Shown here piece by piece: positions 6,575-40,302 of a DNA stretch of 53,106 nt. Under the pieces are notes generated by a model that was given only the letters and a program-made list of their open reading frames with translations, made no database searches and was not told the DNA's origin. The DNA is taken from assembly GCA_964644555.1 (NCBI GenBank), contig CAZXWI010000001.1, positions 1-53,106 of the forward strand, given 5' to 3'. Numbering within the stretch: the first letter of the stretch is position 1; each line of letters begins with the position of its first letter. The DNA is from an uncultured Lachnospiraceae bacterium. GTDB lineage: Bacteria; Bacillota; Clostridia; Eubacteriales; Anaerofustaceae. The position numbers and the translations under genes were made by a program.

Positions 6575-7717
6575 ATGAGTACAAACTTATGGCAGATAGT
6601 GCCGTTTAAAAAATTCAAAACAAAGTGTGAATCATCTTTCGGAGAAAACTTCCCCGAGCGAATTTTTTTGTATTCACTCATGGCAATGATACTCATCTAT
6701 GCCATGATGTGTTCATCATTTAATTCCTCGGGAAATATTTTTGATATCATCGACAAACTGCGATATGTTGCCGCATTTATGATGCTTATAAAAATATATT
6801 TTCTTTCAGACTATAACATAAAGCAGTTAAGCCTTTTGAGTCTATTATATATTTTTACATTCTTTAACTCCATAAAAGCTTATGACCCTACATTATTCTT
6901 CAGTGCAATAATGATTTTCGGCTCAAAAGATGTGGAATATAAAAAGATATGCAAGTATGTATTTTTTACAATGCTTTTATCGGCATGTTCAATATTTACA
7001 CTGCACATATTCGGTGTTTTGAACGATTTTTTAGTACCAAGGGGAGATACTTTCCGACACTCTTTCGGCTTTTCACACCCCAACACAACAGGGCTGTGGA
7101 TACTGTGCATAATTGCATCGTGCCAACAAGCTTTTTGTGAAAAATTAAAGCTCTGCCACTACGCTTTGTTTGCAATTATAGCACTTATCATGAATATAAG
7201 TGTAAATTCCAGAGCTGCACTCGTTTCGATATTACTAATCAGCATAATAATGCCAATATTAACTAAAGTAAAATTCTCCGAAAAAAAATGCAAATATATC
7301 GCAGTGGGAATCGTTGTTCTCATATACATTGCCGTAATAGTATTTACCCTTTACTACAATGAAAACAATTCGTTTATGCTGATGCTCGATAAACTGTTTT
7401 CATATAGAATCAGCCTATCTCATTTGGCATACGAATATTACAATGTTACTTTATTCGGCAGTTCTCTTCCCGTAACCGATGCGAAATTCGTCCTCGATTG
7501 CATGATTGTAAGAATTCTTCTTACTTATGGAGTGCTAACGCTTATTTTATCGGGAATTTGCCTTTGCAAAATTCAAGTACGAGCCATTAACAACAAATGC
7601 ATATACATTGCCGCTATGAGCTTGATACTTTTGATTTACTCTATTATGGAAACTTTCCCCTATAATGCGGTGTTTAATGTTACATTGCTTATGGTTTGTG
7701 CAAAGCTTGGGGAGTGA
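6575..7717 (+). CDS. Polytopic membrane protein, O-antigen ligase/polymerase-like
   Basis: About 10 predicted hydrophobic helices with one larger loop (RGDTFRHSFGFSHPNTTG), resembling the Wzy_C/O-antigen ligase loop. No stronger motif seen. Confidence 0.55.
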   Translation: MSTNLWQIVPFKKFKTKCESSFGENFPERIFLYSLMAMILIYAMMCSSFNSSGNIFDIIDKLRYVAAFMMLIKIYFLSDYNIKQLSLLSLLYIFTFFNSIKAYDPTLFFSAIMIFGSKDVEYKKICKYVFFTMLLSACSIFTLHIFGVLNDFLVPRGDTFRHSFGFSHPNTTGLWILCIIASCQQAFCEKLKLCHYALFAIIALIMNISVNSRAALVSILLISIIMPILTKVKFSEKKCKYIAVGIVVLIYIAVIVFTLYYNENNSFMLMLDKLFSYRISLSHLAYEYYNVTLFGSSLPVTDAKFVLDCMIVRILLTYGVLTLILSGICLCKIQVRAINNKCIYIAAMSLILLIYSIMETFPYNAVFNVTLLMVCAKLGE

Positions 7718-7804: not shown

Positions 7805-8566
7805 CTACTCTCCTACCAAATCCTCCATATCATATAGTCCGCTCGGCTTTCCTACGATAAACTTAGCGGCTCTCACAGCACCCGAAGCAAATACTCTTTT
7901 GGACATGGCACTATGATGAACAGTAATTATTTCATCGTCTGAAATATACATTACTTCATGTTCGCCTGCTATTGCACCGCCCCTTATGGCATGAACTCCT
8001 ATTTCATTTGAGCATCTTTTGCATTGACCGTTTCGGCCGTATACCAAATCATAATCGGTTTGGGTGTTTTTTTGTATGGTATCAAGCAGCATCTTCGCCG
8101 TACCACTGGGAGCATCTGCTTTTTTATTGTGATGAGCTTCAATTACTTCAATGTCGAAATCTTCATATAAAAGCCTTGTTGCCAATGCGATGATTTTTTT
8201 CATTACATTGACTCCGTAAGAAAAGTTCGCACTTCTGAAAACGGCTATCTCTTTTGACGCTTCTTTAATAAGATTTTCGCATTCTTCGCTTATTCCAGTT
8301 ACGGCACTAACAAGTGGCTTTTTATTTTTCATACACCACTTTGTAATTTCATCGGTAAGTGAAAAATGTGAAAAATCTATTACAATATCCACATCTTCTT
8401 TTATGTTTTCAAGGCTTTTATATATAGGAAAAGGCTCTGTTTGTTCACTTACCAAAGGCTCAAAACCGCAACTTATCGAAAAAGAATCACTTTCGTTTAT
8501 AAGCGAAGTCACAACCTTCCCCATAGCACCTAAAGCACCACATAATAAAACTTTTATCTCACTCAT
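7805..8566 (-). CDS. dapB: 4-hydroxy-tetrahydrodipicolinate reductase
   Basis: N-terminal Rossmann GALGAMG and the DapB signature EAHHNKKADAPSGTA. Confidence 0.92.
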   Translation of the reverse strand: MSEIKVLLCGALGAMGKVVTSLINESDSFSISCGFEPLVSEQTEPFPIYKSLENIKEDVDIVIDFSHFSLTDEITKWCMKNKKPLVSAVTGISEECENLIKEASKEIAVFRSANFSYGVNVMKKIIALATRLLYEDFDIEVIEAHHNKKADAPSGTAKMLLDTIQKNTQTDYDLVYGRNGQCKRCSNEIGVHAIRGGAIAGEHEVMYISDDEIITVHHSAMSKRVFASGAVRAAKFIVGKPSGLYDMEDLVGE

Positions 8567-11390: not shown

Positions 11391-12275
11391 TTATCTTGTT
11401 CTGAACCATGTTACATCCGAACTTGTAGGAAGAAGGAAATAATAGCCTCCGTCCTTCTCTGTAAGGAATGAGTTAACATTTTTTCTGAACTGCTCTTGAT
11501 TTACCAATTCGGGATAGTCCGTGGCATTAATAAGATCTTCGTAAGCAGCTTCCTTTGTGGGATACCATTTATCCCAGCCTTCATCTACTTTTGTGATATG
11601 CACCTCAATACCCTGTTCTTCCAAAACTTTTTTAAGGCTCGGACCATGCATGGGCAGCTTGTCGCTCATATCTATAGGACCACGACCTCCGAAAAGCTCT
11701 GTTTTTTCACCGGGTTTGGGTTCTGGTCTTTTTCTTTCTCGATCAAAAGGTCTTAAATCGGGGTGAGCCTGCATTGCCTCTTCGGAGTAACAATCTGTGA
11801 AGAGTTTACCTCTCGATTCGGGCAAACAAGGAGCGCCGTCCGACCACATAACGCTTACGGCAAATTGTCTTGCAGCCTTTTGAAGCATTTTAAGCGAGCT
11901 TGGGCCTCCGCCACCTCTTGACTGAATTACAACATCAACTTCCGGTATGGTAGTTCCGATTTCCGTTTCCTGCCAATCGGCATAAACAAATTCAACATTG
12001 GTTATACCTGCGGCTTCGCAGTTTTTTCTGCATTCTTCAAGCATACCCTCGGAGTTATCAAGGCAAATAACTTTTTTTACTCTCTTTGCAGCCTGTATTG
12101 CCACTCGTCCAGGGCCACAGCCGCAGTCCAAAACTACCATGTCTTCCGTAAGAGGCATTGCATCTAATTGCAAATTCGTTCCGTTTACTTCCATCAAAGT
12201 CATAAAGCTGTAGCCTCTTGCAGCTTTATCCCACATACTGGGTTTGACAGGAGTAGCTATTATGGTTTCTGTCAT
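11391..12275 (-). CDS. Class I SAM-dependent methyltransferase with uncharacterised C-terminal domain
   Basis: SAM motif I VLDCGCGPGRVA and post-I acidic residue (CLDNSEGM). The start was moved to the MTETII ATG (12275) because the longer ORF overlaps the upstream gene by 23 nt. Confidence 0.75.
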   Translation of the reverse strand: MTETIIATPVKPSMWDKAARGYSFMTLMEVNGTNLQLDAMPLTEDMVVLDCGCGPGRVAIQAAKRVKKVICLDNSEGMLEECRKNCEAAGITNVEFVYADWQETEIGTTIPEVDVVIQSRGGGGPSSLKMLQKAARQFAVSVMWSDGAPCLPESRGKLFTDCYSEEAMQAHPDLRPFDRERKRPEPKPGEKTELFGGRGPIDMSDKLPMHGPSLKKVLEEQGIEVHITKVDEGWDKWYPTKEAAYEDLINATDYPELVNQEQFRKNVNSFLTEKDGGYYFLLPTSSDVTWFRTR

Positions 12276-12291
12276 TTTTATTTTTCCGTTT

Positions 12292-13116
12292 CTATAATAG
12301 ATTCCAATTACCAACCGATTTTCTCACATCAGTAAATCCGTACTTCACAAAATCGGTATTTAAAAATTCCTTTAAAAATTCTTCGGCAGCTTCCTTATTC
12401 TGTGCATTATCGGGTATTACCGCCGCATGAAATATAGTTGTGCCGAATATTTCGTTTCCGCCGTCAACAACAAAAGACACCTTGTTATACTCTTCTTCGA
12501 AATTTTCATCCCCCAAATTCATAACTTTCGGCAAAAGAGCATAATTAAAATTGTTACCTACTGCGGAACTTCGATAGGATATCTGATATACATTATCTTC
12601 GCACATTGGGGCAAATGCCTTATGCTCAGGCTTTTTATTATCGGGCTTTCTGTTTCTTTCGTACTGCTTTCTGTCTAAGCCCTTATAATTTGGGTTTGAA
12701 AATATTCTTTCGCTCAAACCATCTTCAACCCTATCCGCAAGCTTGATTGCCATAACGGCTCTGTATCCGCTCGGGTCGTCGTAAGGGTTCATATGTTTTA
12801 ATGTTGCCTCATCTGAGGTAAGCTTTTCAGCCCAATTATCATCATTTACATCATTTCCCACAACAACCATCTCATTTCCGCCCCAAATGTAGTATCCGCT
12901 ACAATATTCGGGCATCATCAATTGCTTGATGTTGCTGTCATCGGCAAGGAGCATCAAATCGAATTTTTCGCCTGATAAAAGCTTGTTGATACCGCCTGTA
13001 GAGCCGCCCATAATAAGCTCGCACTCCATATCGGGGTTTTCTTTTTTATAACGCTCTAATGTTTCTTTGGCAATTTTTCCACATACACCTGCGCTGAATA
13101 TTCTAAGCATTTTCAC
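12292..13116 (-). CDS. ModA/WtpA-like periplasmic-binding-protein-fold protein lacking a signal peptide (predicted cytoplasmic)
   Basis: Type-II PBP-like blocks (IMGGSTGGINKLLSGEKFDLMLLADD, DPSGYRA) resemble oxyanion-binding proteins. There is no hydrophobic N-terminus or lipobox. Confidence 0.6.
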   Translation of the reverse strand: MKMLRIFSAGVCGKIAKETLERYKKENPDMECELIMGGSTGGINKLLSGEKFDLMLLADDSNIKQLMMPEYCSGYYIWGGNEMVVVGNDVNDDNWAEKLTSDEATLKHMNPYDDPSGYRAVMAIKLADRVEDGLSERIFSNPNYKGLDRKQYERNRKPDNKKPEHKAFAPMCEDNVYQISYRSSAVGNNFNYALLPKVMNLGDENFEEEYNKVSFVVDGGNEIFGTTIFHAAVIPDNAQNKEAAEEFLKEFLNTDFVKYGFTDVRKSVGNWNLL

Positions 13117-13126
13117 CTCCGTATAA

Positions 13127-13897
13127 CTAACAGACTATGCAAACATTTCGTTTGGCATCTTCGTCATATACAGTTTTAATATCGAGATTATATAATGACG
13201 AAAGCATTTCCTTATTTAGGGTATCAGCCGCATGCCCCACACCCAATACACCGTTTTTGTCAAGTATTGCAACTTTGCCGTCAAGTATAATTGCGTGATC
13301 CGGATTATGTGTAGTCATAATTACGGCATACCCCTCTTTCGCAAGTTCTTTTACCATTTGCACAACACGATATTGATTGCCGTAATCAAGATGTGCCGTT
13401 GGTTCATCAAGCAAAATAAGCTTGGGCTGTTGTGTTAAAGCTCTTGCTATGGTAACTTGCTGACGCTCTCCCCCCGATATTTCGGTATAAGCTTTGTCCT
13501 TAAGATGAAGTATATTCATTCTCTCCAGGGATTCTTCGGCTATCATATAATCCTCTTTTGACGGTTTTGAGAATGTTCCGATATAGGGTGTTCTGCCCAT
13601 AACGGTAAATTCCAATACGGTATATGCATAAGCAGGAGTATGTATCTGCGGCACATATCCTATTATTCTGGCAACATCGTTCATGCTCATTGAACTTGAA
13701 TCTTTACCGTTTAAATATATATGTCCGCTTGCGGGTTTAAACAGATTCGCAATGCAGTTCAGCAAAGTGGACTTGCCAGCACCGTTTGTTCCCAAAATGG
13801 ACAGAACCTCGCCCTCATCAAGCTGAAAACAAACATCATGAAATATAGTTCGGCTGTTATAATATTTGTAGCTTAAATCTTGTACATCAAGTATCAT
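13127..13897 (-). CDS. ABC transporter ATP-binding protein, FepC/BtuD (type II importer) family
   Basis: Walker A GTNGAGKST, signature ISGGERQ, Walker B LILLDEPT. 4-nt overlap with the permease gene. Confidence 0.9.
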   Translation of the reverse strand: MILDVQDLSYKYYNSRTIFHDVCFQLDEGEVLSILGTNGAGKSTLLNCIANLFKPASGHIYLNGKDSSSMSMNDVARIIGYVPQIHTPAYAYTVLEFTVMGRTPYIGTFSKPSKEDYMIAEESLERMNILHLKDKAYTEISGGERQQVTIARALTQQPKLILLDEPTAHLDYGNQYRVVQMVKELAKEGYAVIMTTHNPDHAIILDGKVAILDKNGVLGVGHAADTLNKEMLSSLYNLDIKTVYDEDAKRNVCIVC

Positions 13898-14940
13898 GTC
13901 AAAGTCCTGTTCTGTTTAATTAAAATGAAAATAAAGAAAGGTGCGCCGATTATACCCGTCAATACGCCCAATTTGAGTTCAGCCGTAGATAATGTTCTGC
14001 AAAGCATATCTATTATAAGCATAAAGATTGAACCCAAAAGCATTGCCATAGGAAGCATTTTTTTATTGTCAGAGCCGATAAGCATTCGGGATGTGTGAGG
14101 TATTATCAAACCTACCCAGCCGATACTGCCCGAAACACTTACGCAACTTGCGGTTATCAATGTTGAAAAGAAAATAAACATTCCTCTGGTTTTTTGAAGA
14201 TTGATTCCCAGTGAACGTGCTTCGTTATCTCCCAAAGACAAAACATTGAGTCGATAACGCATTAATATAATCAAAAAGCACGGTATCAACACCATCGGCA
14301 ATATCGACAAAAGTTCCGACATGGTTATTGTGGCAAACGACCCCATTGTCCAATAAGTGATTTCCGCCAATTGAGTATCGGTATCAGCCAAAGCTTTTAT
14401 TACACTCATTACCGATGACATAAGGCTGCTTACCACGACACCGGATAAGATAAGTATCGTAGTGGATTGACTTTTAATCAATTTCGGAATGAGCGTTGTA
14501 ATAAATACCGCCGCAATTCCTCCAATGAATGCCAAAAGCTGAATAAAGAGGCTGTTGAAATTCAATAAAATAGCAACTGCCGCCCCTATGCACGCACCGG
14601 ATGAAACCCCAAGTAAATCGGGGGATGCCATCGGGTTTTTGAATATGCTTTGATAACAAGCACCCGATAAAGCAAGCCCTGCCCCTACGACTACCGATGT
14701 CAATGTTCGGGGTAAACGCAGATTAATTACCACAGCTTCCTCGATATTCGACCATGTTTTTTTAATGCCGAAAATTTTTGATGCCAAAATTTTAATTACA
14801 TCACCCAAATTAATGCTGTATCGCCCAAGTGCAAGTGATGCGGCTACCGTCAGTAACAGAGCCGCAAACACTATGCCGACAACAACCCGATATTTTTTAT
14901 CGGAAAAATTTGTGGATTTATTGTCAATTGATTTTTTCAT
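13894..14940 (-). CDS. FecCD/BtuC-family ABC importer permease
   Basis: About 10 TM helices and conserved FecCD blocks (RLPRTL, GAGLALSG, NPMASPDLLGVSSGA, TGIIGAPFFI). Confidence 0.9.
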   Translation of the reverse strand: MKKSIDNKSTNFSDKKYRVVVGIVFAALLLTVAASLALGRYSINLGDVIKILASKIFGIKKTWSNIEEAVVINLRLPRTLTSVVVGAGLALSGACYQSIFKNPMASPDLLGVSSGACIGAAVAILLNFNSLFIQLLAFIGGIAAVFITTLIPKLIKSQSTTILILSGVVVSSLMSSVMSVIKALADTDTQLAEITYWTMGSFATITMSELLSILPMVLIPCFLIILMRYRLNVLSLGDNEARSLGINLQKTRGMFIFFSTLITASCVSVSGSIGWVGLIIPHTSRMLIGSDNKKMLPMAMLLGSIFMLIIDMLCRTLSTAELKLGVLTGIIGAPFFIFILIKQNRTLT

Positions 14941-14961
14941 TGTTAAGAATTAAAAGTAAAA

Positions 14962-16077
14962 TTAGTTAAGTTCCTGTGTTCCATCAGGAAGCAAACCGTT
15001 TAACATATTGTTAGCCTGATCTTTTGTAAGCTCAGTGCCGTTCATTGTTTTGTAAAAGCTAATGATCTGCTCTGCCATGTAATCTTTTGTTATGCCGTTA
15101 GCTTCTGCGATTTCAGGCTGGATGCACAATAAAGCGTAATCTACCTGCAAGTAGCTTTCAAGTCCGAATCTATCCCAGTTAAAGCATGCATAGGGGTTGT
15201 TGTAAACTCTGCCGTTCTGAACTGCTTTGAGGTCTTTCCAACCGTCTGATGTTGCAATCTGTTCAAGAAGCTTATGCTGATATACGCCACCAACGATGAT
15301 AACATCAGGGTTTGCAGCAAAGATTTCTTCAACTGTGATTTCGTTGCCGGCAAGATTGATAACTGCAGGTAAGTATTTACCTCCGTTTGCTTCAACCCAG
15401 TTCTGAATAATTGTATTCTGACCCATTGTAGCTGTAAGGCTGTCGCTCTGACCGGAAATGTACATAACTACAGGTTTGTCTTCATCTGCCACATTTGCAA
15501 CGAGGTTTTTGTTGTTTTCAATCTTTGTACCGACTTCTGTACACCACCAGGTGAGTTTTTCTTTGTATTCACCGCCCAAGATTTCAGCGAGCATTGTGTA
15601 TGCCTGAATCATTGTATCGTAGTTACTGAAGTTGATGTTGATTGCGGGAATACCAGCATCTCTGATCTGCTGAGCGTATCCGTCTTTAGCTGATGAAGGA
15701 TGCACGATTACCAGGTCCGGTTCGAGTTTAACGAGTTCTTCAACTGCGGGAGTTGTTCCGCCGAGGCCCTGAATTTCAGTACAACCTTCGTAGAAGAATT
15801 TTGTCCAACCGTTCATTGTTGCAGGTGTGTTCATTGCAAGACCGCTTACGAGGTCTCCTGCACCCATGACAAAGAATGAAGATGTACCTGCAGGCCAAAG
15901 GTTAACGATTGTTTTTACTTCGCCCTCGATAGTTACTTCATCACCGCTCATGTCGGTTACTGTGATTGTTCTGTTTGTAAGATCTTCTTCATTGTTTTTG
16001 GAGCTTGTGCAGCCTGCAAAAACGCTTAAAGCAATAAGAACAACTAATAAAACAGAAACTATTTTTTTCGTTTTCAT
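14962..16077 (-). CDS. Lipoprotein substrate-binding protein of BtuF/FhuD (class III PBP) type
   Basis: Signal peptide with lipobox FAGC. Two-lobe PBP blocks (LEPDLVIV, ANPDVIIVGG). Strong RBS AAGGAGAA. Confidence 0.85.
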   Translation of the reverse strand: MKTKKIVSVLLVVLIALSVFAGCTSSKNNEEDLTNRTITVTDMSGDEVTIEGEVKTIVNLWPAGTSSFFVMGAGDLVSGLAMNTPATMNGWTKFFYEGCTEIQGLGGTTPAVEELVKLEPDLVIVHPSSAKDGYAQQIRDAGIPAININFSNYDTMIQAYTMLAEILGGEYKEKLTWWCTEVGTKIENNKNLVANVADEDKPVVMYISGQSDSLTATMGQNTIIQNWVEANGGKYLPAVINLAGNEITVEEIFAANPDVIIVGGVYQHKLLEQIATSDGWKDLKAVQNGRVYNNPYACFNWDRFGLESYLQVDYALLCIQPEIAEANGITKDYMAEQIISFYKTMNGTELTKDQANNMLNGLLPDGTQELN

Positions 16078-16309
16078 ATTGTTTTCTCCTTAGGTTTTAT
16101 ATTTAAATATCATATCGATATTTAGGCAAAATAAAATGGGTTCCCGTAGTATATAAAATTTTACATACTAAAAAGGAACCCACAGTGTGCGTAAATCAAT
16201 AATATTTCACTTGCAGTATTCCTTTCCAAATACGGGAGGCAAACAAATTTCTTAGTTTACCCATCGGTTATTTTCCTTGGTCAAAGCTTTAGGAATAATA
16301 ACTCGGAAT
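16078..16309 (-). promoter_or_regulatory. Long 5' leader with internal intrinsic terminator (candidate riboswitch or attenuator, class unresolved)
   Basis: On the minus strand, GGGTTCC-TTTT-TAGTAT...ATACTA-CG-GGAACCC is followed by ATTTTATTTT, ending about 50 nt before the start codon. Upstream AAAGGAA can pair with the TTCCTTT of the terminator 5' arm. Confidence 0.45.
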
Positions 16310-16315
16310 AATTTC

Positions 16316-16344
16316 ATTATACTTAATATTCCAAAATGTTGCAA
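16316..16344 (-). promoter_or_regulatory. Sigma-70-type promoter of the importer operon
   Basis: TTGCAA (16339-16344), 17-nt spacer, TATAAT (16316-16321) on the minus strand. Confidence 0.55.
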
Positions 16345-30920: not shown

Positions 30921-30962
30921 AAAAGACCTTCGTATATTAAATTACAAAGGTCTTATTTTTAT
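30921..30962. terminator. Bidirectional terminator (ECF S gene / hydF-containing operon)
   Basis: Stem AAGACCTT/AAGGTCTT (30923-30954) with a T-run 3' on the plus strand and an A-run 5'. Confidence 0.7.
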
Positions 30963-31042: not shown

Positions 31043-32257
31043 TTACTTATTTTTCTCTTTCAAATAATCTTCGTACAAATCGGGAAGAACTTTGACTCCT
31101 CTTTCCAATATGCCATTCATATACGCAATAGCCAAGCCATAATTCGTCATCGGCACATTTTGGTCAAAAGCACATTTTGTGCGGTATACAAGCTCTCTTG
31201 TGTTGAGCATACAGCCTCCGCAGTGCAAAATAAGCGAATATTTGCTTAAGTCATCCGGAAATCCCGTGCCGCTTGAAAGCTCTATATCAAAATTTGCATT
31301 TGTTCTTTCTTTAAGCCAATGCGGTATCTTGACGCTACCGATGTCATCGCATTGCCTGTGATGAGTGCAGCCCTCCGCTATAAGCACGGTGTCGCCGTCT
31401 TTAAGCCTGTCGATTGCCGTAACCCCCATAACGGCTTCTCTTAAAAAGCCCTTGTGCCTTGCAAGCAATATCGAAAATGATGTAAGAGGAACATCATCGG
31501 GAGTAAGCTTTGAAACAAGCCCAAACACCTGAGAGTCCGTAATTACCATTTTGGGCTTTTTCGATAAAGATTCCAAAGTTTTACTAAGTTCTGTTTCTTT
31601 ACACATAGCAACGATTGCATTCGCATCTAACACATCACGCATCATCATTTGCTGGGGTAGTATCATTCTGCCTTTAGGTGCCGAAGAATCTATGGGAGTA
31701 ACCAAAACCACAATATCCCCATCAGACAACAAATCTTTTACCAAGGGAATCTCTTCATCGTTCGGTTTAAGATAAGCAAGCTTTTCTTTTAATTCGTAAA
31801 TTCCTATATTTTTTTCGGCACTGACATATATTTCATTTTCGCTTGGCTCAGAGTGGTTCGGTTTCATCTCGCATTTGTTATAAGCAATAATATAATTTAT
31901 TTTTTTATCCTCAAACAGCGAAACAAGCTCCCTATCAAGAGAAGTGATTCCCTTTTGTATATCCACCACCAAAACTGCGATATCCGTTTTATTCAGAACC
32001 TGTTTTGTCTTTTTCACTCTCAAAAGACCGAGTTCGCCCTCGTCATCATACCCCGGAGTGTCGATTATCATAACAGGCCCTAACGGCAAAAGCTCCATGG
32101 ATTTGCTCACAGGGTCGGTGGTCGTGCCTTTAGTGTCGGAAACAACCGCCAAATCCTGATTGGTAACCGCATTCACAAGGCTTGATTTTCCTGCGTTTCG
32201 AAGCCCGAAAAAACCTATATGAACCCTCTCTGCCGAGGGTGTATCGTTAAGCCCCAT
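31043..32257 (-). CDS. hydF: HydF-type GTPase ([FeFe]-hydrogenase H-cluster maturation scaffold family)
   Basis: GTPase G1 GLRNAGKSS, G3 DTPG, G4 NKCE. The C-terminal cluster motif EGCTHH...HCGGC matches the HydF CxH...HCxxC signature. Confidence 0.85.
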   Translation of the reverse strand: MGLNDTPSAERVHIGFFGLRNAGKSSLVNAVTNQDLAVVSDTKGTTTDPVSKSMELLPLGPVMIIDTPGYDDEGELGLLRVKKTKQVLNKTDIAVLVVDIQKGITSLDRELVSLFEDKKINYIIAYNKCEMKPNHSEPSENEIYVSAEKNIGIYELKEKLAYLKPNDEEIPLVKDLLSDGDIVVLVTPIDSSAPKGRMILPQQMMMRDVLDANAIVAMCKETELSKTLESLSKKPKMVITDSQVFGLVSKLTPDDVPLTSFSILLARHKGFLREAVMGVTAIDRLKDGDTVLIAEGCTHHRQCDDIGSVKIPHWLKERTNANFDIELSSGTGFPDDLSKYSLILHCGGCMLNTRELVYRTKCAFDQNVPMTNYGLAIAYMNGILERGVKVLPDLYEDYLKEKNK

Positions 32258-32286: not shown

Positions 32287-33390
32287 TTATTTGAATGCAG
32301 CAGCATCTTTGCCCGGTGAGAATATCTTTTGAGCCTGCTCATCGGTAAGGGTAATATCGAATACCGCTTCGTAATAATCTTTTGTTTCCTGAGTTATATC
32401 AATATCGCTGAAAATTTCGGGATAAACGGTTTTTGCAAGCCACATGAGCGTAACAGGAGTATCTACTCCGCAAGTATAACTTCTGTACATACCAAGGGGC
32501 ATTTTGCTTACCTTATTGTTTTCAACTGCGGCAATTCCGCTCCAATCAAAGCTGCCTATAGTATTGTTGTATAAATCATACGGCAATGCCTGGTTAAAGT
32601 TGGTAATAAGTATTCTGTCGGGATTCCATGTGTATACCTGTTCAAGGTTTACCTGAGTTGAATAAGCTGTTTCCATTTCTTCGCCGACATTTTTTGCGCC
32701 AATGGCATCAGCCCACCATTGTCCAAAGAATTTTTTGCCCGATGTGGTTATCATTGTGTCGTTATATTGGAAAAGGAAAAATACTTTTTCTCTCTCTTCG
32801 TTCGAAAGTGATGCCACTCTTTGCTGAACGAAATCATACTTTTCTTCGCTGTATTGTTTAACAAGATCGGCTCTGTCGTTTTCGGGGAATAATTCCGACA
32901 AAAGAGCTATCCAGTTGTTAAGAGTTTCTATTGCATCATAATCCCATTTGCCTGCCGAAATTCCTATAGCCGCAAAGCCCGCATCTTTAAGCTGAGTACC
33001 TATCTGTTCGGATTCGGCACTGTAGAATACAACATCGGGATCAAGTTTGATTATTTCTTCGATATTGATATTAGTTCCGTCAATAAATGCTGTCTGTGCA
33101 TTTAAAATTTCAGGATATAATTCCGATAAGAGGCTGTTCTGTGCGGCACTCATGCTCGGCTGAGCAATACCCACCAATTTTTCCGCAGAATCAAAGAATA
33201 CAGCCAAAACCGACGGAAGCGGATAAATATCGCATACGACTATACGCTCGATATTTTTCGGCACTTCCACCTCATTGTCAGCATGATCGATAATGGTTAT
33301 GGTGTCGGAAGAATTATTTCCGTTCGTTGTGCAACCGAATAACCCAATTACGGTTACTGCTACCAAAAGTAAAGCAACTAATTTTTTCAT
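32287..33390 (-). CDS. Lipoprotein substrate-binding protein of BtuF/FhuD type (paralogue of 14962-16077)
   Basis: Signal peptide plus lipobox FGC. Blocks LDPDVVFY and WNPDRILITN. ATGA overlap with the upstream K-like gene. Confidence 0.85.
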   Translation of the reverse strand: MKKLVALLLVAVTVIGLFGCTTNGNNSSDTITIIDHADNEVEVPKNIERIVVCDIYPLPSVLAVFFDSAEKLVGIAQPSMSAAQNSLLSELYPEILNAQTAFIDGTNINIEEIIKLDPDVVFYSAESEQIGTQLKDAGFAAIGISAGKWDYDAIETLNNWIALLSELFPENDRADLVKQYSEEKYDFVQQRVASLSNEEREKVFFLFQYNDTMITTSGKKFFGQWWADAIGAKNVGEEMETAYSTQVNLEQVYTWNPDRILITNFNQALPYDLYNNTIGSFDWSGIAAVENNKVSKMPLGMYRSYTCGVDTPVTLMWLAKTVYPEIFSDIDITQETKDYYEAVFDITLTDEQAQKIFSPGKDAAAFK

Positions 33391-34529
33391 TCTAAATTTC
33401 TCCTTACAAATTCATTAAAATTTTCTACCAAATTAGGTATTTCTTTTCTGTAAATTCTGCCCGAAAAAGCTTCGTGCGGCAAATTTACGAATTTCGCACC
33501 CGTTGGACAAATGGGTTTATACATCTTATCCGCAATGATGATTTTTGCCTTTTCCAAGTGCGGTATTATTTCATCTTCATCGATAGCCGAAATGCATCCG
33601 TCTCCGATAAAAATGTCATCAATGTCAGTGGCGCAAATTACATTTGCACCGTATCCCGAATGATAATAAAGTGCATTGGCTAACGAAAGCGAAGTAACAC
33701 CTTCTCCGATTATTACCACATCGTCATTCACAAATGTTTTCGGAAGATAGTTTTCTTTAGTTTCAGCCGATAATTTTATCTTATCTATAATATTATCGCT
33801 GAACTCATCACCGTATAAAGCACCTACAACATACGGGATATTAAACCTTTTCTCTAATACTTTTGCGGCTCTCATTGCACAGGACGAAACTACCAAATTT
33901 ACCTTTGCATGTTTTGCTTTAATCATATTCTCGTATGTGTCATTCATTGCCCATACAGAATTGACTTTGATATTGTTTTTCTCAAGTTTTTTTCTTAAAG
34001 ATATATCAGAACCGTTTATCGAAAAATCAAGGGGAGTAACGCCCAAAATGTTTACGCTGAGTTCATCAGATGCCACTTCGTCATCACTGCAAATTCTCTC
34101 GGCAAATTGCTCAAATGCAAGATCTGCTCCTCTGACATACGAATGCATTCCATCGGTTGGAATACCGAATGAAATTATTCCGGTATCTTCTTGTATTTCA
34201 CGGGCTATTGCAGGAATATCCACTCCCGTCATCATCGGTATGGGAGTGCCTGCTATGGCAATGAATTTCGGCTTAAGCACCTCGGCAGCCTTTTTTATAT
34301 CAGATATCAATTTGTCATCATCGCCCAATATTGCTTCGGTTTCGGTTATTGCCGAAATATATACCATGCTGTCCATGTCGTACCATCTCGGTTCGTCATG
34401 GGTGCCGTATGTGGAATTGCACCCTGATGCATCATGCATTATGCACATACCGCCCAATTCGTATAAAGCAGAACATACACCCGATGTATCCGAAGCATAT
34501 GTGGATATTATTTTAGCTGTTTGTTTCAT
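33387..34529 (-). CDS. Nitrogenase component-1-type oxidoreductase subunit, NifK/NifN/BchB-like (380 aa)
   Basis: MHDASGC block resembles the H-G-x-x-G-C motif of the nitrogenase component-1 family. Start set at the ATG forming an ATGA overlap with the upstream stop, with GGAGGG 7 nt upstream. Confidence 0.8.
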   Translation of the reverse strand: MKQTAKIISTYASDTSGVCSALYELGGMCIMHDASGCNSTYGTHDEPRWYDMDSMVYISAITETEAILGDDDKLISDIKKAAEVLKPKFIAIAGTPIPMMTGVDIPAIAREIQEDTGIISFGIPTDGMHSYVRGADLAFEQFAERICSDDEVASDELSVNILGVTPLDFSINGSDISLRKKLEKNNIKVNSVWAMNDTYENMIKAKHAKVNLVVSSCAMRAAKVLEKRFNIPYVVGALYGDEFSDNIIDKIKLSAETKENYLPKTFVNDDVVIIGEGVTSLSLANALYYHSGYGANVICATDIDDIFIGDGCISAIDEDEIIPHLEKAKIIIADKMYKPICPTGAKFVNLPHEAFSGRIYRKEIPNLVENFNEFVRRNLE

Positions 34530-35848
34530 ACACACCCTCCGCAGCCTAAACCCTTTTCGGAAATGAAAGTTTTAACATCTTTTGCATTTTCGTAAGCATC
34601 ACAAAGCATTTCGGCAAATTTGATTATTCCGTCAAAGGCATACAACCCGCCGTCCTCCACGATATTCACAAAATACTCTGTCGATGTAAAATATGCCGCC
34701 TTTTGCCCAATCGCCAAAACTTTTTCTTTTAAGTTGCGGTTTATTCTTCGCATTGATGTATGTATGCTCGGAGCTAAAATCATTTCCGGGGAAATGTTTT
34801 TTAGAATCTCAAAGTCCCTCTTTTCATCTGCAGTAACAGAATCCAGATACACCTTTTTTACATTAAAACCCTTTTTAATTAAAAGTTTAGCTAAACTGAG
34901 TGGTCTAGAAAACGCCGTGTAATCAATAACTATAGGTGTATCGCCTATCAAATCAAGCGCTTTTGCCAAAATTTGGTCGCACTTTGTTATTTCAGGAGAG
35001 TAATCTGGCATACTTACATTAAGAGCATTTGTAAGAACACTTAAATTATCAATAATTTCGTCATAATCAAAGCTAAAGGGCAAATACAAATGGGTCTGTC
35101 CGAATCTTTCGTTTAGGTACTCACCTGCTGTTTTGGCAGCCGGGAATGTGCTTATACATATTGAGCATTCTGCCATTTCAAGGTAATCTTCAAAATTTTT
35201 ATAATCCTGAATCTGCATAAGCTTATATCCGTTGTCGGTTACAAGCTTTGCAAGTTCGCTGTTGTTACTGACGGCAAAATCGCCTCCGACTATGCTAACA
35301 GCTTTTTTATTTATATCTCTTTCTTCGAGCAAGCTATATAGCCGCCTTCTCATAAGTTGATCGGGGGTGAGTCCGCTCTTTCTCATAATGGGGTTCATAT
35401 AGCAGTCGGTAAAACGAACAGTGGGAAACAATCTTCGAAGTTCGGAAAGCACGATATCCAAATCCGTCCCCATAAAATGATGCACACAGCTTGTAAACAA
35501 AAGTACTGCGGGAGGAAGTGTATTAAGCTTATTTAGTATGTCGGTAACACCATCTATTATCAAGCTTTCCATATCACCGTCAAGCACATTTTGTTCTCTT
35601 ACGGCAATGGTGGAAAACCTGTCTGACAGCCCCATTTCAGCCGCAGTTAAAACGACTCCTCTTAGACACCCCTGAGCACACACGAATATTTGGTGAGCCT
35701 CAGGCACAAGCATACCCGTATGCACAATATTCCATGTACCTCTGGCAGGAGCGGAATATTCCAATCCTGTGTCAAATAATTTCGGCAAGCTCGCATCTTT
35801 TATTTTAATATTCGGTTCGTCAATAATTTCGCCGATTTTTTTTAACAT
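34526..35848 (-). CDS. Nitrogenase component-1-type oxidoreductase subunit, NifD/NifE/BchN-like (440 aa)
   Basis: FVCAQGC block aligns by eye with the HGPxGC motif. Further Cys motifs FTSCVHHF, TDCYMNP and ECSICIS; C-terminus ends CGGCV. Start set at the ATG one nt after the NifH-like stop, with GGAG upstream. Confidence 0.8.
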   Translation of the reverse strand: MLKKIGEIIDEPNIKIKDASLPKLFDTGLEYSAPARGTWNIVHTGMLVPEAHQIFVCAQGCLRGVVLTAAEMGLSDRFSTIAVREQNVLDGDMESLIIDGVTDILNKLNTLPPAVLLFTSCVHHFMGTDLDIVLSELRRLFPTVRFTDCYMNPIMRKSGLTPDQLMRRRLYSLLEERDINKKAVSIVGGDFAVSNNSELAKLVTDNGYKLMQIQDYKNFEDYLEMAECSICISTFPAAKTAGEYLNERFGQTHLYLPFSFDYDEIIDNLSVLTNALNVSMPDYSPEITKCDQILAKALDLIGDTPIVIDYTAFSRPLSLAKLLIKKGFNVKKVYLDSVTADEKRDFEILKNISPEMILAPSIHTSMRRINRNLKEKVLAIGQKAAYFTSTEYFVNIVEDGGLYAFDGIIKFAEMLCDAYENAKDVKTFISEKGLGCGGCV

Positions 35849-35849
35849 A

Positions 35850-36605
35850 TCATTCTCCGCATACACTTATTATTTCATTTGCCAAAATTTCATATTGCTT
35901 TGCCATTTCACTTTCGGGGAAGGCTTCTATGACGGTCTTGCCAAGAGATTCGGCTTCCAAAACAATATCACTTCTATCAAGCGAACCTATTATTCTCGAA
36001 TTTATATCCGAAGCAAGCTCTTCGACCTTTTCGGTTTCGTTTTTCACATTTCTTCTGTTTAAAATAAGCCCACCGAAAGAGGAATACCCTCTTTTTTTGA
36101 ACCCTTCTACGGCAACGGCAATGTTAGCCGCCGCATGAAGCGACATATTTTCTCCCGATGTAACCACAAACACATGCTGAGCGTATCCCGGACGCATGGG
36201 CATTGTAAATCCACCGCATACTACATCACCAAGAACATCGTACAATACTATATCCGGCTTATATACTTCGTAAACGCCTTTTTCTTTAAGCTTTTCCAAT
36301 GCAGCGATTATCCCTCGCCCTGCGCAGCCGGTTCCCGGAGTAGGACCTCCTGCTTCCACGCAAATGACACCACCGAAACCAAGCCTTAACATATCATCAA
36401 GCTCAAAATCATTGCCATTTTCTCTTACCAAATCCAGTACCGTAGGTATTTTATTCTCCGAACGAAGAAGTACAGTGGAATCTGCTTTCGGGTCGCAGCC
36501 TATTTGCATTACTTTATATCCTTTTTTAGAAAGTGCAGCCGCCACATTCGAAACCGTAGTGGATTTGCCTATTCCGCCTTTTCCGTAAACAGCGATTCTA
36601 ATCAT
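35850..36605 (-). CDS. NifH/BchL/CfbC-family ATPase (nitrogenase iron-protein-like)
   Basis: P-loop [10 protein letters not shown], switch I CDPKADST, both 4Fe-4S Cys contexts ([13 protein letters not shown]). Confidence 0.9.
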
Positions 36606-37665
36606 TGACTTCTCCTTTTATGTAATCTTTATGATCTCCTCGGTCGCACACTACCTCGTAGCCTATCTGTGCCATTTGCTCTTTTAATATATTTATTCCC
36701 AATTCGGCAGTCAGATCCGTGCCGACCTTGTTATCGTAGAGCATATATTTTTTTCTGACATCACTCGGTGATATGTTCGGCATAACAACATTACATCCAC
36801 ACAACACTCCCAATTTTCGACCGTCGGCATTTGCAGTGCCGAGTGCCGTAGTAGCAGGCAAAAGCACATCGGGCAGCATAATTCGAGTTAAGCTCATTAA
36901 AAATAATGTAAGGCTCACATCTCCGCAAGGTTCTGAGCCAAAGGGGGTATCTTTATGAGAAATGAACGGTCCAATACCCACCATAGCAGGAGAAAATTCC
37001 CCTATAAAGAGCATATCCTTTGCCAAATTCTCAATGCTTTGGTATTTAACCCCCACCATAAATCCACAGCCCACCTGATAGCCTATTTCTTTTAAGTCAT
37101 TTAAGCATCTCATTCTGTTTTCATATTTTTGGTAGGCAGGGTGTATTTTTTCGTATAAATCTTTATCTGCCGCTTCGTGCCTTAAAAGATATCTGTCGGC
37201 ACCCACATTAAAAAGTTTTTCATATGAATTACGGCTGAGTTCACCCACCGACAGAGTAATGGCACAGTCGGGGTATTTCTTTTTTATATCGGATACAATA
37301 TCGCAAAGAATCTCATCTTTGTAATATGTATCCTCACCGCCTTGCAATACGAATGTGCGAAATCCATATTCGTAACCGATATCACAGCACGATAAAATAT
37401 CGTCCTTAGTAAGTCTGTAGCGATTGGCATTTTTATTGGAATGACGAATACCGCAATAGTAGCAATCGTTTTTGCAATAATTGGTAAATTCTATAATGCC
37501 TCGAAAATATATTTTCTTTCCGAATCTATCCACCGATATCTTTTGAGCAAGCTCGGAAGCATAATCAAAGTCCTGCTTGTCGTATGACGATAACAGGTGA
37601 GTCCATTCTTCAAAGCTCAAGCATTTTTCTTCATTCAATTTGTTGATAAGTTGTTTATTATTCAT
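36598..37665 (-). CDS. hydE: Radical SAM enzyme of the HydE/BioB/PylB clade (HydE-like)
   Basis: [13 protein letters not shown]3CX2C motif at about residue 65, GGE block (LQGGED), GCGFMVG block; about 355 aa. Start set at the MNNKQL ATG (37665), which overlaps the ATPase stop. Confidence 0.7.
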
Positions 37666-38749
37666 CGACACCGCACCTTTTTTGAGCAAATGTTGTTTTT
37701 ATGCTCAAATTTCCCAATATACTTAGTCTGTGAGTTAGCACCTCGGCTTCGCTCTTGGGAGAATCCAAGGTAAAGTTAATGATGTACACTCCTGCTTCCC
37801 TATATGGGATACCCATTCTGCCGATAACATATTGGTTATAAGCATGAATTTCCTTGTTGATTTTATCAGCTAATTCATAGTCGCTGAAAATTACGGCAAC
37901 AACGGCTATGACATTTTCCGAGTCATCTATTTGCTTATCTGCCTTTTTATCATCGGAAATTTGTAAAGGCATTATGTTTTTATATATATTTTCTTCCGTT
38001 TCCACTTCTCCGATAACAGCCTTAACTCCGAATACCGATTCGATATTTTCTTCCGTAACTATTTTTGCGGTTTCTCCGAAAACAGCTTCACCGTTTTTCG
38101 GTAGGAGCAATGATTTATCGGCTCGGGAAAGTGCATGAGTCGGATAATGCGTATTGAAAATGCATCCTATATTTTCACTATGAGCTAATTCCGACATGGT
38201 ATTTAACACGATAAGCTGATTTCTGAAATCCAAATTAGATTCGGGCTCGTCCAAAATCAATAGCTTGGGTTCGTTTATCAATGCTCTGGCTATCAACACC
38301 ATTTGAAGCTCGCCGCCGCTTATTTCGTTGCATTTTTTACCCGTTAAATAGGATATGTTGAGCCTTTGCATTAATCTATCGACTTTCTCATAATCTGCCT
38401 TTTTCGGCTGAGAGAACACTCCTATTTTATCGGCAAGACCCAAAAGGATCATATCTTCCGCTTTCATTGACGATGAAGTGCCCTTTGCTTGCGGCACATA
38501 AGAAACATTTTGCCAAAATTTCTTTTGGTTCATTTTGGAAATGTCCTCGCCGTCAAGAGTGCTTAACCCTTTGCTCCATTTCAAAAATCCCATTATGCAC
38601 TTGAGCAATGTAGTTTTACCTGCTCCATTAGGGCCTAAAACTGCAACCAGTTCCCCCGAATTTAGTGTAAAATTTAAATTTTTGATTATATATTTTTCGC
38701 TTTTATATCCGAAAGAAGCGTTTTCTACACATAGCTTCATAATTGCCAC
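37658..38749 (-). CDS. ABC importer ATPase (FepC/BtuD type) with C-terminal TM1266-like domain
   Basis: Walker A GPNGAGKTT, signature ISGGELQ, Walker B LLILDEPE. The last approx. 90 aa (VIAVVAVIF...VIGRMGIPYR...) are homologous to the 87-aa protein at 39743-40006. Confidence 0.85.
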   Translation of the reverse strand: MAIMKLCVENASFGYKSEKYIIKNLNFTLNSGELVAVLGPNGAGKTTLLKCIMGFLKWSKGLSTLDGEDISKMNQKKFWQNVSYVPQAKGTSSSMKAEDMILLGLADKIGVFSQPKKADYEKVDRLMQRLNISYLTGKKCNEISGGELQMVLIARALINEPKLLILDEPESNLDFRNQLIVLNTMSELAHSENIGCIFNTHYPTHALSRADKSLLLPKNGEAVFGETAKIVTEENIESVFGVKAVIGEVETEENIYKNIMPLQISDDKKADKQIDDSENVIAVVAVIFSDYELADKINKEIHAYNQYVIGRMGIPYREAGVYIINFTLDSPKSEAEVLTHRLSILGNLSIKTTFAQKRCGVDE

Positions 38750-39753
38750 CCCTCGGAACGCCTCATTAATGTGATAAAGAATGGAGCTCCGATAATTGCC
38801 GTCAACACCGATATGGGTATTTCCGCAGCCGAAACGCTCCTTGCCAAAGTGTCAACTATAACCAGAAAAGTCCCTCCTAAAATGACCGATGACGGCATTA
38901 ATAACAAGTGGTTATTGCCAAAGAGCATTCTACACATATGCGGTATCAAAAGCCCTACCCAACCGACCTGACCGCACATGGAAACGCATGAAGCGGTAAT
39001 GCCGGTGGAGCACAGAACGCAAACTACCCTGAGTAAATTGATATTAACTCCCGTGGCACGAGCCTCTTCTTCGGAAAGAGGCAAAATATTAAGCCGCCAG
39101 CGCATTAACAAAAGAATAGTTATTCCGATTATTATTATGGGCGAACCCAACAATAGCGATTTATAATTGGCAGCCGATAAATTACCCATAAGCCAATATG
39201 TTATTTCGGGTAGTTCACTTTCCACATCGGCGGTAAATTTCACCAAAGATATCAATGCCGAAAATAGAGAACCTATCATTATTCCTGCCAAAACCACATT
39301 GCTCAAGGCACTTTTTGACTTACTTTTGCCCGAAAGCACGGTAAGCACTACAGCAAGAATGCCGAAAAACAACGATACAAATTGAACTCCAATGAGTTCG
39401 AATCCCAAAAGCAGACCTAAAGCCGCCCCAAATGAAGCCCCCGATGCCACACCCAATGTATCGGGGGTTGCCAAAGGGTTATTAAATAGGCTCTGAAAAG
39501 TGCATCCTGCAGCAGAAAGCCCGGCTCCTGCCAAAAATGCGAGCAATATTCTCGGAAAGCGAATACTCCATAAAACCCGCTCCGTTTGATTTGATAACAC
39601 TTCTCCTCCGAATATGTGAACCTTAATCGATAAAATAACATCCCCTACCGATACATTCATTCGCCCTATGCATAAACAGCACAGTATAGTGAAAACAGGC
39701 AAAATTATCAAAATAATCTTTGATAATAAAGACATTTTGTTACTACTTTTCAT
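38737..39753 (-). CDS. FecCD/BtuC-family ABC importer permease
   Basis: FecCD blocks RFPRIL, GAGLSAAG, NNPLATPDTLGVASGA, TAIIGAPFFI. Start uncertain: 39789, 39753 or 39735. 39753 gives an 11-nt overlap with the upstream gene. Confidence 0.85.
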   Translation of the reverse strand: MKSSNKMSLLSKIILIILPVFTILCCLCIGRMNVSVGDVILSIKVHIFGGEVLSNQTERVLWSIRFPRILLAFLAGAGLSAAGCTFQSLFNNPLATPDTLGVASGASFGAALGLLLGFELIGVQFVSLFFGILAVVLTVLSGKSKSKSALSNVVLAGIMIGSLFSALISLVKFTADVESELPEITYWLMGNLSAANYKSLLLGSPIIIIGITILLLMRWRLNILPLSEEEARATGVNINLLRVVCVLCSTGITASCVSMCGQVGWVGLLIPHMCRMLFGNNHLLLMPSSVILGGTFLVIVDTLARSVSAAEIPISVLTAIIGAPFFITLMRRSEGWQL

Positions 39754-40006
39754 CTTTGTAAACAACTCCCGAATATGCCGTTTTGGCACTTATTCCGTTA
39801 AGGCGACCTATTTTACCGGATATGGCGCTTATTATATCCTGTGGTGCATCAACCGCAACACTCAAAATATTGATTCCTCTCTTTCGATACGGAAGTCCCA
39901 TTCTGCCTATTATATATTCGCCGTATTCGTGAAGTATCCCATTGAGAGATTCCACCGAATCCGTATTTTCTACTATAATTCCTATGACGGCAATTCTTGT
40001 TTCCAT
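39743..40006 (-). CDS. TM1266-family small protein ('iron-only hydrogenase system regulator' family, ACT/NikR-C-like fold)
   Basis: 87 aa, RIAVIGIIVEN...IIGRMGLPYRKRGINILSVAVDAP pattern. RBS AAGGAG 7 nt before the ATG. Confidence 0.7.
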   Translation of the reverse strand: METRIAVIGIIVENTDSVESLNGILHEYGEYIIGRMGLPYRKRGINILSVAVDAPQDIISAISGKIGRLNGISAKTAYSGVVYKDEK

Positions 40007-40145
40007 ATTCGCTCCTTAAAAAATAAACTGCACCCTTAAAGATGCAGTTATCCCTTAGCATTGCTACAACGTTGTAACTCAAAAGAAAAATTATTTCTGC
40101 ATCTTCCATCTCAAAACGAATTTTCAATGTTAGAATACTTATTTA
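40007..40145 (-). promoter_or_regulatory. 5' leader with mutually exclusive terminator and antiterminator hairpins
   Basis: Minus-strand RNA has AACTGCA-tctttaaggg-TGCAGTT followed by TATTTTTT directly before the RBS. Upstream AAGATGCAG (40097-40105) is perfectly complementary to CTGCATCTT (40039-40047). The palindrome TACAACGTTGTA lies between them. Confidence 0.5.
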
Positions 40146-40152
40146 CATATTT

Positions 40153-40182
40153 ATTATACTATGATTTTCACCTTGCCTGCAA
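40153..40182 (-). promoter_or_regulatory. Sigma-70-type promoter of the nitrogenase-like operon
   Basis: TTGCAG (40177-40182), 18 nt, TATAAT (40153-40158) on the minus strand. Confidence 0.5.
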
Positions 40183-40269: not shown

Positions 40270-40302
40270 ATTTTAATATATTTAAAATCAGCAAAATGTT
40301 TT

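Follow-up and report, generated by a model that had tools for sequence, protein, structure and literature searches.

ATP-binding cassette (ABC) importers such as MetNI and ModBC are trans-inhibited. The molbindin domain occurs free as Mop/ModG, fused to ModC and fused to ModE, and PyrR, TRAP and HutP are ligand-activated RNA-binding attenuation proteins of Firmicutes. Here, we describe a locus with likenesses to each of these in a 53,106-nucleotide stretch of DNA from an uncultured Lachnospiraceae bacterium (contig CAZXWI010000001.1, assembly GCA_964644555.1; the whole stretch is hereafter the window). A nine-gene minus-strand operon in the window carries a TM1266-family domain twice, as the small protein encoded by gene 1 and as the C-terminal tail of the ATPase of an ABC importer. 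TM1266 has had a crystal structure since 2006 (2nzc) and the label ‘putative regulator’, with no mechanism so far. We show that both copies belong to the family, that the fusion is authentic and old, that the two lineages share a set of invariant residues, and that a structured leader RNA is linked to the gene of the free copy.

One operon carries a free and a fused TM1266 domain

Both copies scored above the curated cut-offs of TIGR03959 and PF21699, confirming the family assignment that the initial annotation had made from the sequence alone. The free protein reached 112.8 bits against TIGR03959 (cut-off 60.8) and 109.3 bits against PF21699 (cut-off 27) over the full length of the models, and it matched TM1266 itself (PDB 2nzc) at E = 1e-10. 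Within the ATPase, PF00005 covered residues 20–166 and PF21699 residues 278–349 (55.6 bits); when the final 100 amino acids were scored alone, they obtained 64.2 bits against TIGR03959, a small margin over 60.8, and 58.7 bits against PF21699 (cut-off 27). A gap-free alignment of the free copy with the ATPase tail spanned 78 residues, of which 32% were identical and 63% positives (pairwise E = 4e-19). The core IGRMG[LI]PYR, proposed earlier as common to both, was present in this alignment, and both sequences were found at their annotated minus-strand positions.

AlphaFold2 modelled the tail alone as a beta-alpha-beta-beta-alpha-beta fold with a predicted local distance difference test score (pLDDT) of 96.4. 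The model superposed on 2nzc with a TM-score of 0.91 and a root-mean-square deviation of 1.3 Å, followed by NikR C-domains at 0.84–0.88 and then by ACT domains, which bore out the expectation of an ACT/NikR-C-like fold without a DNA-binding domain. The model of the whole ATPase (pLDDT 89.7) was confident except for the linker, and superposed on MetN chains (3tui, 6cvl) across both domains. The best solved relative of the nucleotide-binding domain was HI1470 (MolC, 2nq2; E = 1e-47, 36% identity, TM-score 0.91 on the target). Across 64 ATPase homologues, the Walker A, Q-loop, signature, Walker B/Glu and H-loop columns were invariant, and the linker was polar and unconserved, spanning 15–30 amino acids with a median of 18. 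The intact catalytic motifs, together with matches to PF01032, PF01497 and PF00005, identify the importer as type II (BtuCD/FecCDE/MolBC-like), and its ATPase bears the extra C-terminal domain that characterizes the architecture of trans-inhibited importers.

The fusion is authentic and old

A missed stop codon or a frameshift had been named at the outset as a possible source of the fusion. The reading frame is continuous, and the exact 360-amino-acid ATPase was present, each time within the same operon, on at least ten contigs that stem from several independent sequencing runs. Furthermore, 120 of the 120 best homologues (53–97% identity, 351–419 amino acids, many sources) carried both PF00005 and PF21699, and one fused homologue is named ‘TM1266 family ... 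regulator’ by NCBI. Because the identical protein recurs on these contigs and every one of these homologues is fused, a missed stop or frameshift is excluded. More generally, the idea that the fusion or the similarity is an assembly artefact or a chance likeness could draw on the unfused ATPases of a few related operons (L018, L134), and we found nothing else in its favor; it is refuted by the at least ten contigs, by more than 120 fused clusters and by the pairwise E = 4e-19. With curated cut-offs passed and the fold predicted with confidence, its probability is negligible.

Phylogenetic analysis of 136 domains grouped all fused tails monophyletically, to the exclusion of 114 free copies, indicating a single old fusion and two distinct jobs. 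The same tree ruled out a recent tandem duplication of the neighboring gene as the origin of the tail, and the free copies of transporter operons were scattered among those of canonical hyd operons. With clusters drawn at 50% identity, an exhaustive profile search yielded 1515 TM1266-type representatives; because almost all of these were free proteins of 80–160 amino acids, the fused form is a minority architecture. We found the window's type of operon in about 25 non-redundant loci, each with a free copy as gene 1, and every tailed ATPase examined had a free copy heading its operon.

N21, H25, Y27, G33-R34-M35-G36, P38, Y39, D52 and K74 were invariant in both clades, which suggests that the two lineages retain the same binding site. 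R3, a basic residue at position 42 and the motif SGKxG (both glycines in 100%) were kept only in the free clade; SGKxG is also present in Thermotoga maritima TM1266. Such a distribution is in keeping with a binding site or interface common to both clades and an extra function of the free protein. That a single signal is sensed by both copies is consistent with these residues but unproven.

Several unusual relatives were observed. At one importer locus (L018, 2292–5598, 5931–8618), genes for a binding protein, a permease and a 266-amino-acid ATPase that ends in a stop codon are accompanied by a separate free-type TM1266 gene; this unit has no hyd or nitrogenase-like genes, and 330 nucleotides (nt) on, the next gene on the same strand encodes one long protein that resembles an aminomethyltransferase joined to a serine hydroxymethyltransferase, as judged by eye. 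Singleton architectures (P0175, P0196/P0283/P0286, P0213) comprised GNAT-TM1266, TM1266-HydE and half a FecCD permease joined to TM1266. The TM1266-HydE fusions were considered as ‘Rosetta stone’ evidence of a target at the protein level and rejected: they form three singleton clusters, and since their near-identical nearest relatives are unfused, they are probably read-through or frameshift products. Two stand-alone proteins of 84–85 amino acids on very short contigs (P0001, P0002) combine a free-clade-like N-terminal half with a fused-tail-like C-terminal half (GGVYIINFTLDAP...THKLS) lacking SGKxG, and could have arisen by release of a tail, by recombination or as fragments from gene calling.

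A conserved leader hairpin accompanies the free TM1266 gene

The initial annotation had referred to a structured leader RNA, and upstream of the free gene we identified a covarying hairpin together with a terminator and antiterminator. The hairpin consists of P1 (UCU/AGA), a 2x2 purine loop, P2 (CAUU/GAUG), a 2x2 GA/GA loop and a P3 A/U hairpin, and the minimum-free-energy fold of the window's leader recovers it. The strand AAGAUGCAG overlaps P1 on its 3′ side and forms a perfect complement of the 5′ arm of the terminator (CUGCAUCUU, 40047–40039), a design also seen in related leaders. The leader terminator directly precedes the ribosome-binding site of gene 1. The sensor hairpin begins about 15–20 nt 3′ of a TATAAT box, near the predicted 5′ end of the transcript; related loci have TATAAT-like boxes at a similar distance ahead of the motif, and a consensus promoter scan found no full two-hexamer promoter at the window's TATAAT site.

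Across 22 sequences representing both operon types, pairing was seen in 92.9% of cells, versus at most 50% in slid controls. Covariation reached 0.50 versus 0.198 (0 of 500 shuffles), with compensatory double changes in six of nine pairs, as tested on the sequences from which the structure was derived. Neither the window's leader nor those of seven related loci matched Rfam 15 at the gathering score, and relaxed thresholds returned only chance-level matches to the PyrR site (E = 4.6), sraA and BcKCsr2.

A covariance-model search of 1.35 Mb gave 30 significant hits. All 30 lay on the gene strand, and all 30 stood directly ahead of a free TM1266 gene or between TM1266 and the next gene; a second round added no new loci. 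An independent exact-pattern scan of metagenome contigs returned 52 stretches, and in 36 of these, or 36 of the 39 interpretable genuine hits, a TM1266 gene followed 35–294 nt downstream of the motif. In one further stretch the motif came just after the TM1266 gene, and four were too near a contig end to interpret. The pairing of a constant RNA and TM1266 ahead of varied cargo resembles a regulator with its own target and is the chief argument for a partnership of protein and RNA; the free copy may perhaps act on this structured leader. Divergent look-alikes of the leader were visible by eye at further TM1266 genes.

Nine of the 52 stretches were rejected as false positives, being copies of one soil metagenome coding sequence with 38-nt matches. 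This soil gene (L087, L112, L123–L125, L130, L131, L136), which has a stop codon at its end, finishes with an exact match to the pattern, so the primary-sequence pattern alone is not specific. The position of the switch also varied: at one locus (L008) the TM1266 gene is flanked by a complete switch on either side (7647–7701, 8021–8077), and two others (L017, 8004–8058; L122) have a switch solely between the TM1266 and permease genes, so that the attenuated unit does not include TM1266.

No sampled TM1266 operon combines HydG with nitrogenase-like genes

We surveyed genomic contexts with the motif [ILV][IV]GRMG[MI]PY in one genome per species, which gave at least 80 loci. Among the matches listed, most were from Clostridia (Oscillospiraceae, Lachnospiraceae, Ruminococcaceae), with further hosts in Spirochaetia, Lentisphaeria, Alistipes, Pyramidobacter and Phascolarctobacterium. 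In these and in metagenome loci, a free TM1266 gene headed operons with HydE, HydG and HydF (type a; HydG scored 926 bits in Anaerotruncus colihominis), with an importer, HydE, a nitrogenase-like triad and often HydF (type b, to which the window belongs), with nitrogenase-like genes in the presence or absence of HydE/HydF (type c), with a FecCD-type importer alone (type d; L095), and with an NMT1-type ABC importer, a 181-amino-acid membrane protein and others (type e). The family owes its name to linkage with hydE/G/F, as stated in the initial annotation, and about 30 sampled operons indeed read TM1266-HydE-HydG-HydF. Because the same gene also heads nitrogenase-like operons and two kinds of importer operon, the label ‘hydrogenase regulator’ is too narrow.

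HydG and nitrogenase-like genes excluded one another. HydG was present in 30 operons and nitrogenase-like genes in 20, and no operon had both, among 72 TM1266 loci (from L001–L138) that each had at least 5 kb downstream of TM1266 (Fisher p = 2e-6, uncorrected for phylogeny). Either partner was found with HydE and HydF, and the HydE proteins of window-type operons formed a monophyletic subclade nested in the HydE of canonical operons. The window's operon has hydE and hydF, and hydG is not in it. At the level of operons, these observations suggest that HydG is replaced by the importer and the nitrogenase-like enzyme, or that these two serve another HydE/HydF-dependent cofactor. The nitrogenase-like triad, often with the importer, seems to take the place of HydG.

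Free TM1266 genes were also seen in non-hyd contexts, often with the leader motif (L078, L098, L137, L030, L042, L068; L050, L083; L039; L046). Their cargo includes an importer with an NMT1/phosphonate-binding-type protein and a 181-amino-acid polytopic membrane protein without a Pfam match; free TM1266 also adjoins an Rnf subunit or a Fur-family gene.

Operon layout and gene content

The operon runs from about 40150 to 30923 and is bracketed by terminators at 40273–40243 and 30954–30923 (minus strand; terminator scan). Its features are listed in Table 1. Eight genes overlap or abut a neighbor. Seven successive junctions (33387–40006) overlap by 4–17 bases (for example 39747/39743, 38740/38737, 37665/37658 and 36605/36598), with the start of the permease overlapping the TM1266 stop codon and the start of HydE that of the ATPase; only hydF is preceded by a gap, of 29 bases. 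The overlaps suggest that all genes from TM1266 through the binding protein are translationally coupled. Neither hydG nor hydrogenase genes were among the window's open reading frames scanned against family models, a set that did not extend to the other frames of at least 150 amino acids.

Table 1 Features of the TM1266 operon and its leader in the window.
Feature	Coordinates	Strand	Evidence
Putative −10 box TATAAT (tentative)	40153..40158	−	Direct sequence reading
Conserved leader RNA hairpin	40088..40142 (core 40134–40102)	−	Covariance model 51.9 bits, E = 5e-10
Antiterminator strand AAGAUGCAG	40097..40105	−	Direct sequence reading
Leader intrinsic terminator	40016..40049 (stem-loop 40049–40026 + U tract)	−	Terminator scan, RNA fold
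Free TM1266-family protein, 87 amino acids, gene 1	39743..40006	−	TIGR03959 112.8 bits, PF21699 109.3 bits
FecCD/BtuC-type permease of type II ABC importer	38737..39747	−	PF01032 277.9 bits
ABC ATPase with TM1266 tail, 360 amino acids	37658..38740	−	PF00005 117.8 bits, PF21699 55.6 bits
ATPase nucleotide-binding domain, residues 1–259	37964..38740	−	PF00005 117.8 bits
ATPase linker, residues 260–276, polar and poorly conserved	37913..37963	−	pLDDT falls to ~65
ATPase C-terminal TM1266 domain, residues 277–353, short tail and stop	37658..37912	−	PF21699, TIGR03959
HydE radical S-adenosylmethionine maturase	36598..37665	−	TIGR03956 534 bits, cut-off 254.6
NifH-like ATPase	35850..36605	−	PF00142 294 bits
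Two Oxidored_nitro subunits	34526..35866, 33387..34535	−	PF00148 45 and 107 bits
Lipoprotein substrate-binding protein of importer (Peripla_BP_2)	32287..33390	−	PF01497 52.4 bits
HydF GTPase, final gene	31043..32257	−	TIGR03918 547 bits, cut-off 325.6
Operon-closing terminator	30923..30954	−	Terminator scan

The nitrogenase-like triad does not score as nitrogenase proper or as an F430 or chlorophyll reductase. Its NifH-like protein scored 324.9 bits against the nifH equivalog cut-off of 394 and 316 bits against the CfbC cut-off of 402; the two Oxidored_nitro subunits were far under all NifD/K/E/N, CfbD and BchN/B equivalog cut-offs, and one had no NCBIfam match at all.

The closest solved relatives of the binding protein were 4ovk (E = 2e-45) and HI_1472/MolA (E = 1e-20). 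Because identity to MolBC-A is moderate, its substrate is not transferable to the window's importer. The window has a second FecCD-type importer, consisting of a binding protein (14962–16077), a permease (13894–14940) and an untailed 256-amino-acid ATPase (13127–13897); a ModA-like SBP_bac_11 protein and a methyltransferase follow, and the whole cluster spans 11391–16077 on the minus strand. A molybdenum cofactor (Moco)/tungsten-cofactor riboswitch (74 bits; 16203–16320, minus strand) stands ahead of it. The two importers are 42% identical in the permease, 38% in the ATPase and 25% in the binding protein, and the presence of a paralogous importer behind a Moco riboswitch hints that this transporter lineage carries oxyanions.

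Discussion

The explanation we consider best, though we rate it at a little below an even chance, is that the tethered TM1266 copy throttles import and that the free copy regulates the operon in response to the same ligand, perhaps at the leader RNA. The fused copy would hang on a flexible tether of 15–30 residues below the ATPase of a MolBC/BtuCD-type importer. Once it has bound ligand, the tail would most likely pair with its twin from the second ATPase subunit; this pairing would keep the nucleotide-binding domains apart and throttle uptake by trans-inhibition, as in MetNI and ModBC. We infer this part of the scheme from the architecture of the ATPase and by analogy with those importers. 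The free copy would be the operon's regulator for the same ligand and, together with its 5′ hairpin, would form a portable cassette. Stabilization of P1 would withhold the antiterminator strand, allow the leader terminator to form and turn the operon off. The molecule that binds the hairpin would most likely be ligand-bound TM1266 itself, in the manner of PyrR, TRAP or HutP.

Several points weigh against this explanation. To our knowledge, trans-inhibition has not been described in type II importers, and a tether this long and variable may not fix the tail rigidly beneath the ATPase dimer. ATPases without a tail occur in some otherwise similar operons, one followed by a separate TM1266 gene (L018) and one with none (L134), and some lineages can therefore do without the tail. 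In net charge, the free copy (+0.6) does not exceed the tail (+1.4), and it matches no known RNA-binding family, and the open-access literature searched contains no experiment on, or ligand for, any TM1266-family member. The model-detected motif accompanies about 35% of the sampled TM1266 genes. In one of the 52 pattern-matched stretches (L091) it leads straight into HydE-NifH, and in another (L089) into a lipoprotein gene, both without an adjacent TM1266 gene. The hairpin could be a small-molecule riboswitch.

In the main rival, the leader would be a metabolite-sensing riboswitch, and free TM1266 a transducer like PII/NifI, whose ferredoxin-like topology is the same, that never touches RNA but, when loaded with ligand, binds and switches HydE/HydF, the nitrogenase-like enzyme or the transporter. 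The riboswitch-like off-switch logic of the hairpin speaks for this, as do the two leaders without an adjacent TM1266, the near-neutral charge of the free protein and the presence of ACT domains, whose like normally regulate proteins, among the fold neighbors of the TM1266 domain; rare TM1266-HydE fusions exist as well, but they are singletons whose nearest relatives are unfused. Riboswitch regulons, however, usually vary gene 1 with the cargo, whereas here TM1266 is constant and the cargo changes, and the aptamer, at about 33 nt and with nine base pairs plus a pair of purine loops, would be very small. We regard this rival as doubtful, albeit with a real chance of being right. A further proposal, compatible both with it and with our preferred explanation, makes the free protein a stoichiometric partner of the transporter: two free copies and two tails would form a NikR-C-like tetramer under the ATPase dimer, and the free copy would gate transport directly, like EIIA-Glc on MalK or GlnK on AmtB. 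The constant company of a free copy with the tailed ATPases examined would be expected, the closest fold neighbors after TM1266 are the tetrameric NikR C-domains, the TM1266 crystal entry holds four chains, and the residues invariant in both clades could form the interface. Yet free copies are far commoner without any transporter, so the co-occurrence may be inherited from an ancestral operon, and those of transporter operons form no clade of their own and thus give no sign of co-adaptation; the proposal appears rather unlikely.

The domain may instead be a cargo carrier, with the tail receiving the imported substrate where it leaves the transporter on the cytoplasmic side and handing it to free TM1266 for delivery to HydE/HydF or a nitrogenase-like scaffold. 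Like the molbindins, the domain exists both free and on an ABC ATPase; a flexible tether would suit a hand-off, and the closest solved relatives of the transporter are components of the MolBC-A oxyanion importer. Against this, the free copy also heads operons without a transporter or obvious imported cargo, the domain has a single conserved His and no conserved Cys/His clusters of the metal-carrier type, and the tight pairing with the leader RNA is left unexplained, which makes a carrier role very unlikely.

Our preferred explanation, in which the tail throttles import and the free copy controls the operon, can be extended to a broader proposal that we consider unlikely in its full form. In it, TM1266 proteins would form a new class of attenuator with an ACT/NikR-C fold, binding RNA under the control of a ligand, and each would bring its own 5′ hairpin as a portable off-switch. 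In the lineage of the window, an importer ATPase would also have captured the sensor, so that one metabolite would stop both transcription and uptake. The cassette would here govern a HydG-less operon, in which a MolBC-like importer and a nitrogenase-like reductase would replace HydG in feeding HydE/HydF and thereby provide an alternative route to the precursor of the [FeFe]-hydrogenase cofactor or to a related organometallic cofactor.

The RNA switch and the transporter-tethered paralogue offer two direct experimental handles on TM1266 function. If the proposed throttling is true, type II ABC importers would join those subject to trans-inhibition. Among cis-regulatory RNAs, the leader hairpin has so far gone uncatalogued; it is widespread in gut and rumen Clostridia and, with the mutual exclusion of HydG and nitrogenase-like genes, raises the value of the fusion. 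In the open-access literature searched, we found nothing on TM1266 function, an ABC fusion, a hyd leader RNA or HydE/HydF beside nitrogenase-like genes. Maturation of [FeFe]-hydrogenase without the full HydEFG set is an acknowledged open question (PMC11216029), and the exclusivity bears on cases in which part of HydEFG is lacking.

Comparison with known systems

ABC ATPases with a regulatory domain are a known design, of which the fusion is a variation. Like those of MetNI and ModBC, the ATPase carries a small C-terminal ligand-binding domain, which in the window's protein is putative, and the C2/NIL domain of MetN is likewise ferredoxin/ACT-like. The tail described here, in contrast, is PF21699 without a match to NIL or TOBE, hangs on a long and variable tether and has a free paralogue in the operon. 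MetNI and ModBC are also type I importers, whereas the window's importer, with its FecCD/BtuC permease and Peripla_BP_2 binding protein, is type II; inhibition in the latter would follow by analogy. Its best solved ATPase relative, and the second best for the binding protein, belongs to HI1470/71/72 (MolBC-A), an oxyanion importer of Haemophilus influenzae, in which MolC has no C-terminal domain. The molbindins show the same distribution of one ligand-binding domain, which is found free, on an importer ATPase and in the regulator of the pathway, but their fold is unrelated, and the TM1266 regulator has no DNA-binding domain.

Among small sensors, NikR differs in its ribbon-helix-helix DNA-binding domain and its His/Cys nickel ligands, both of which TM1266 lacks, although the topology suggests that H25 of helix 1 and the GRMGxPY strand occupy the positions of the metal ligands in NikR. 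PII and NifI resemble TM1266 as small beta-alpha-beta-beta-alpha-beta sensors that occur in nitrogenase-type operons and have no DNA-binding domain. These proteins act on proteins; TM1266 has neither a T-loop nor a PII family match, and its fold neighbors are ACT and NikR rather than PII. PyrR, TRAP and HutP are unrelated to TM1266 in sequence and fold, but the arrangement is alike, in that the target hairpin overlaps an antiterminator ahead of a terminator. PyrR and HutP are, moreover, small oligomeric sensors encoded by gene 1, an analogy by which TM1266 may bind RNA, and in some TM1266 operons the target is found on both sides of the regulator gene (L008) or after it (L017), which recalls pyrR and hutP.

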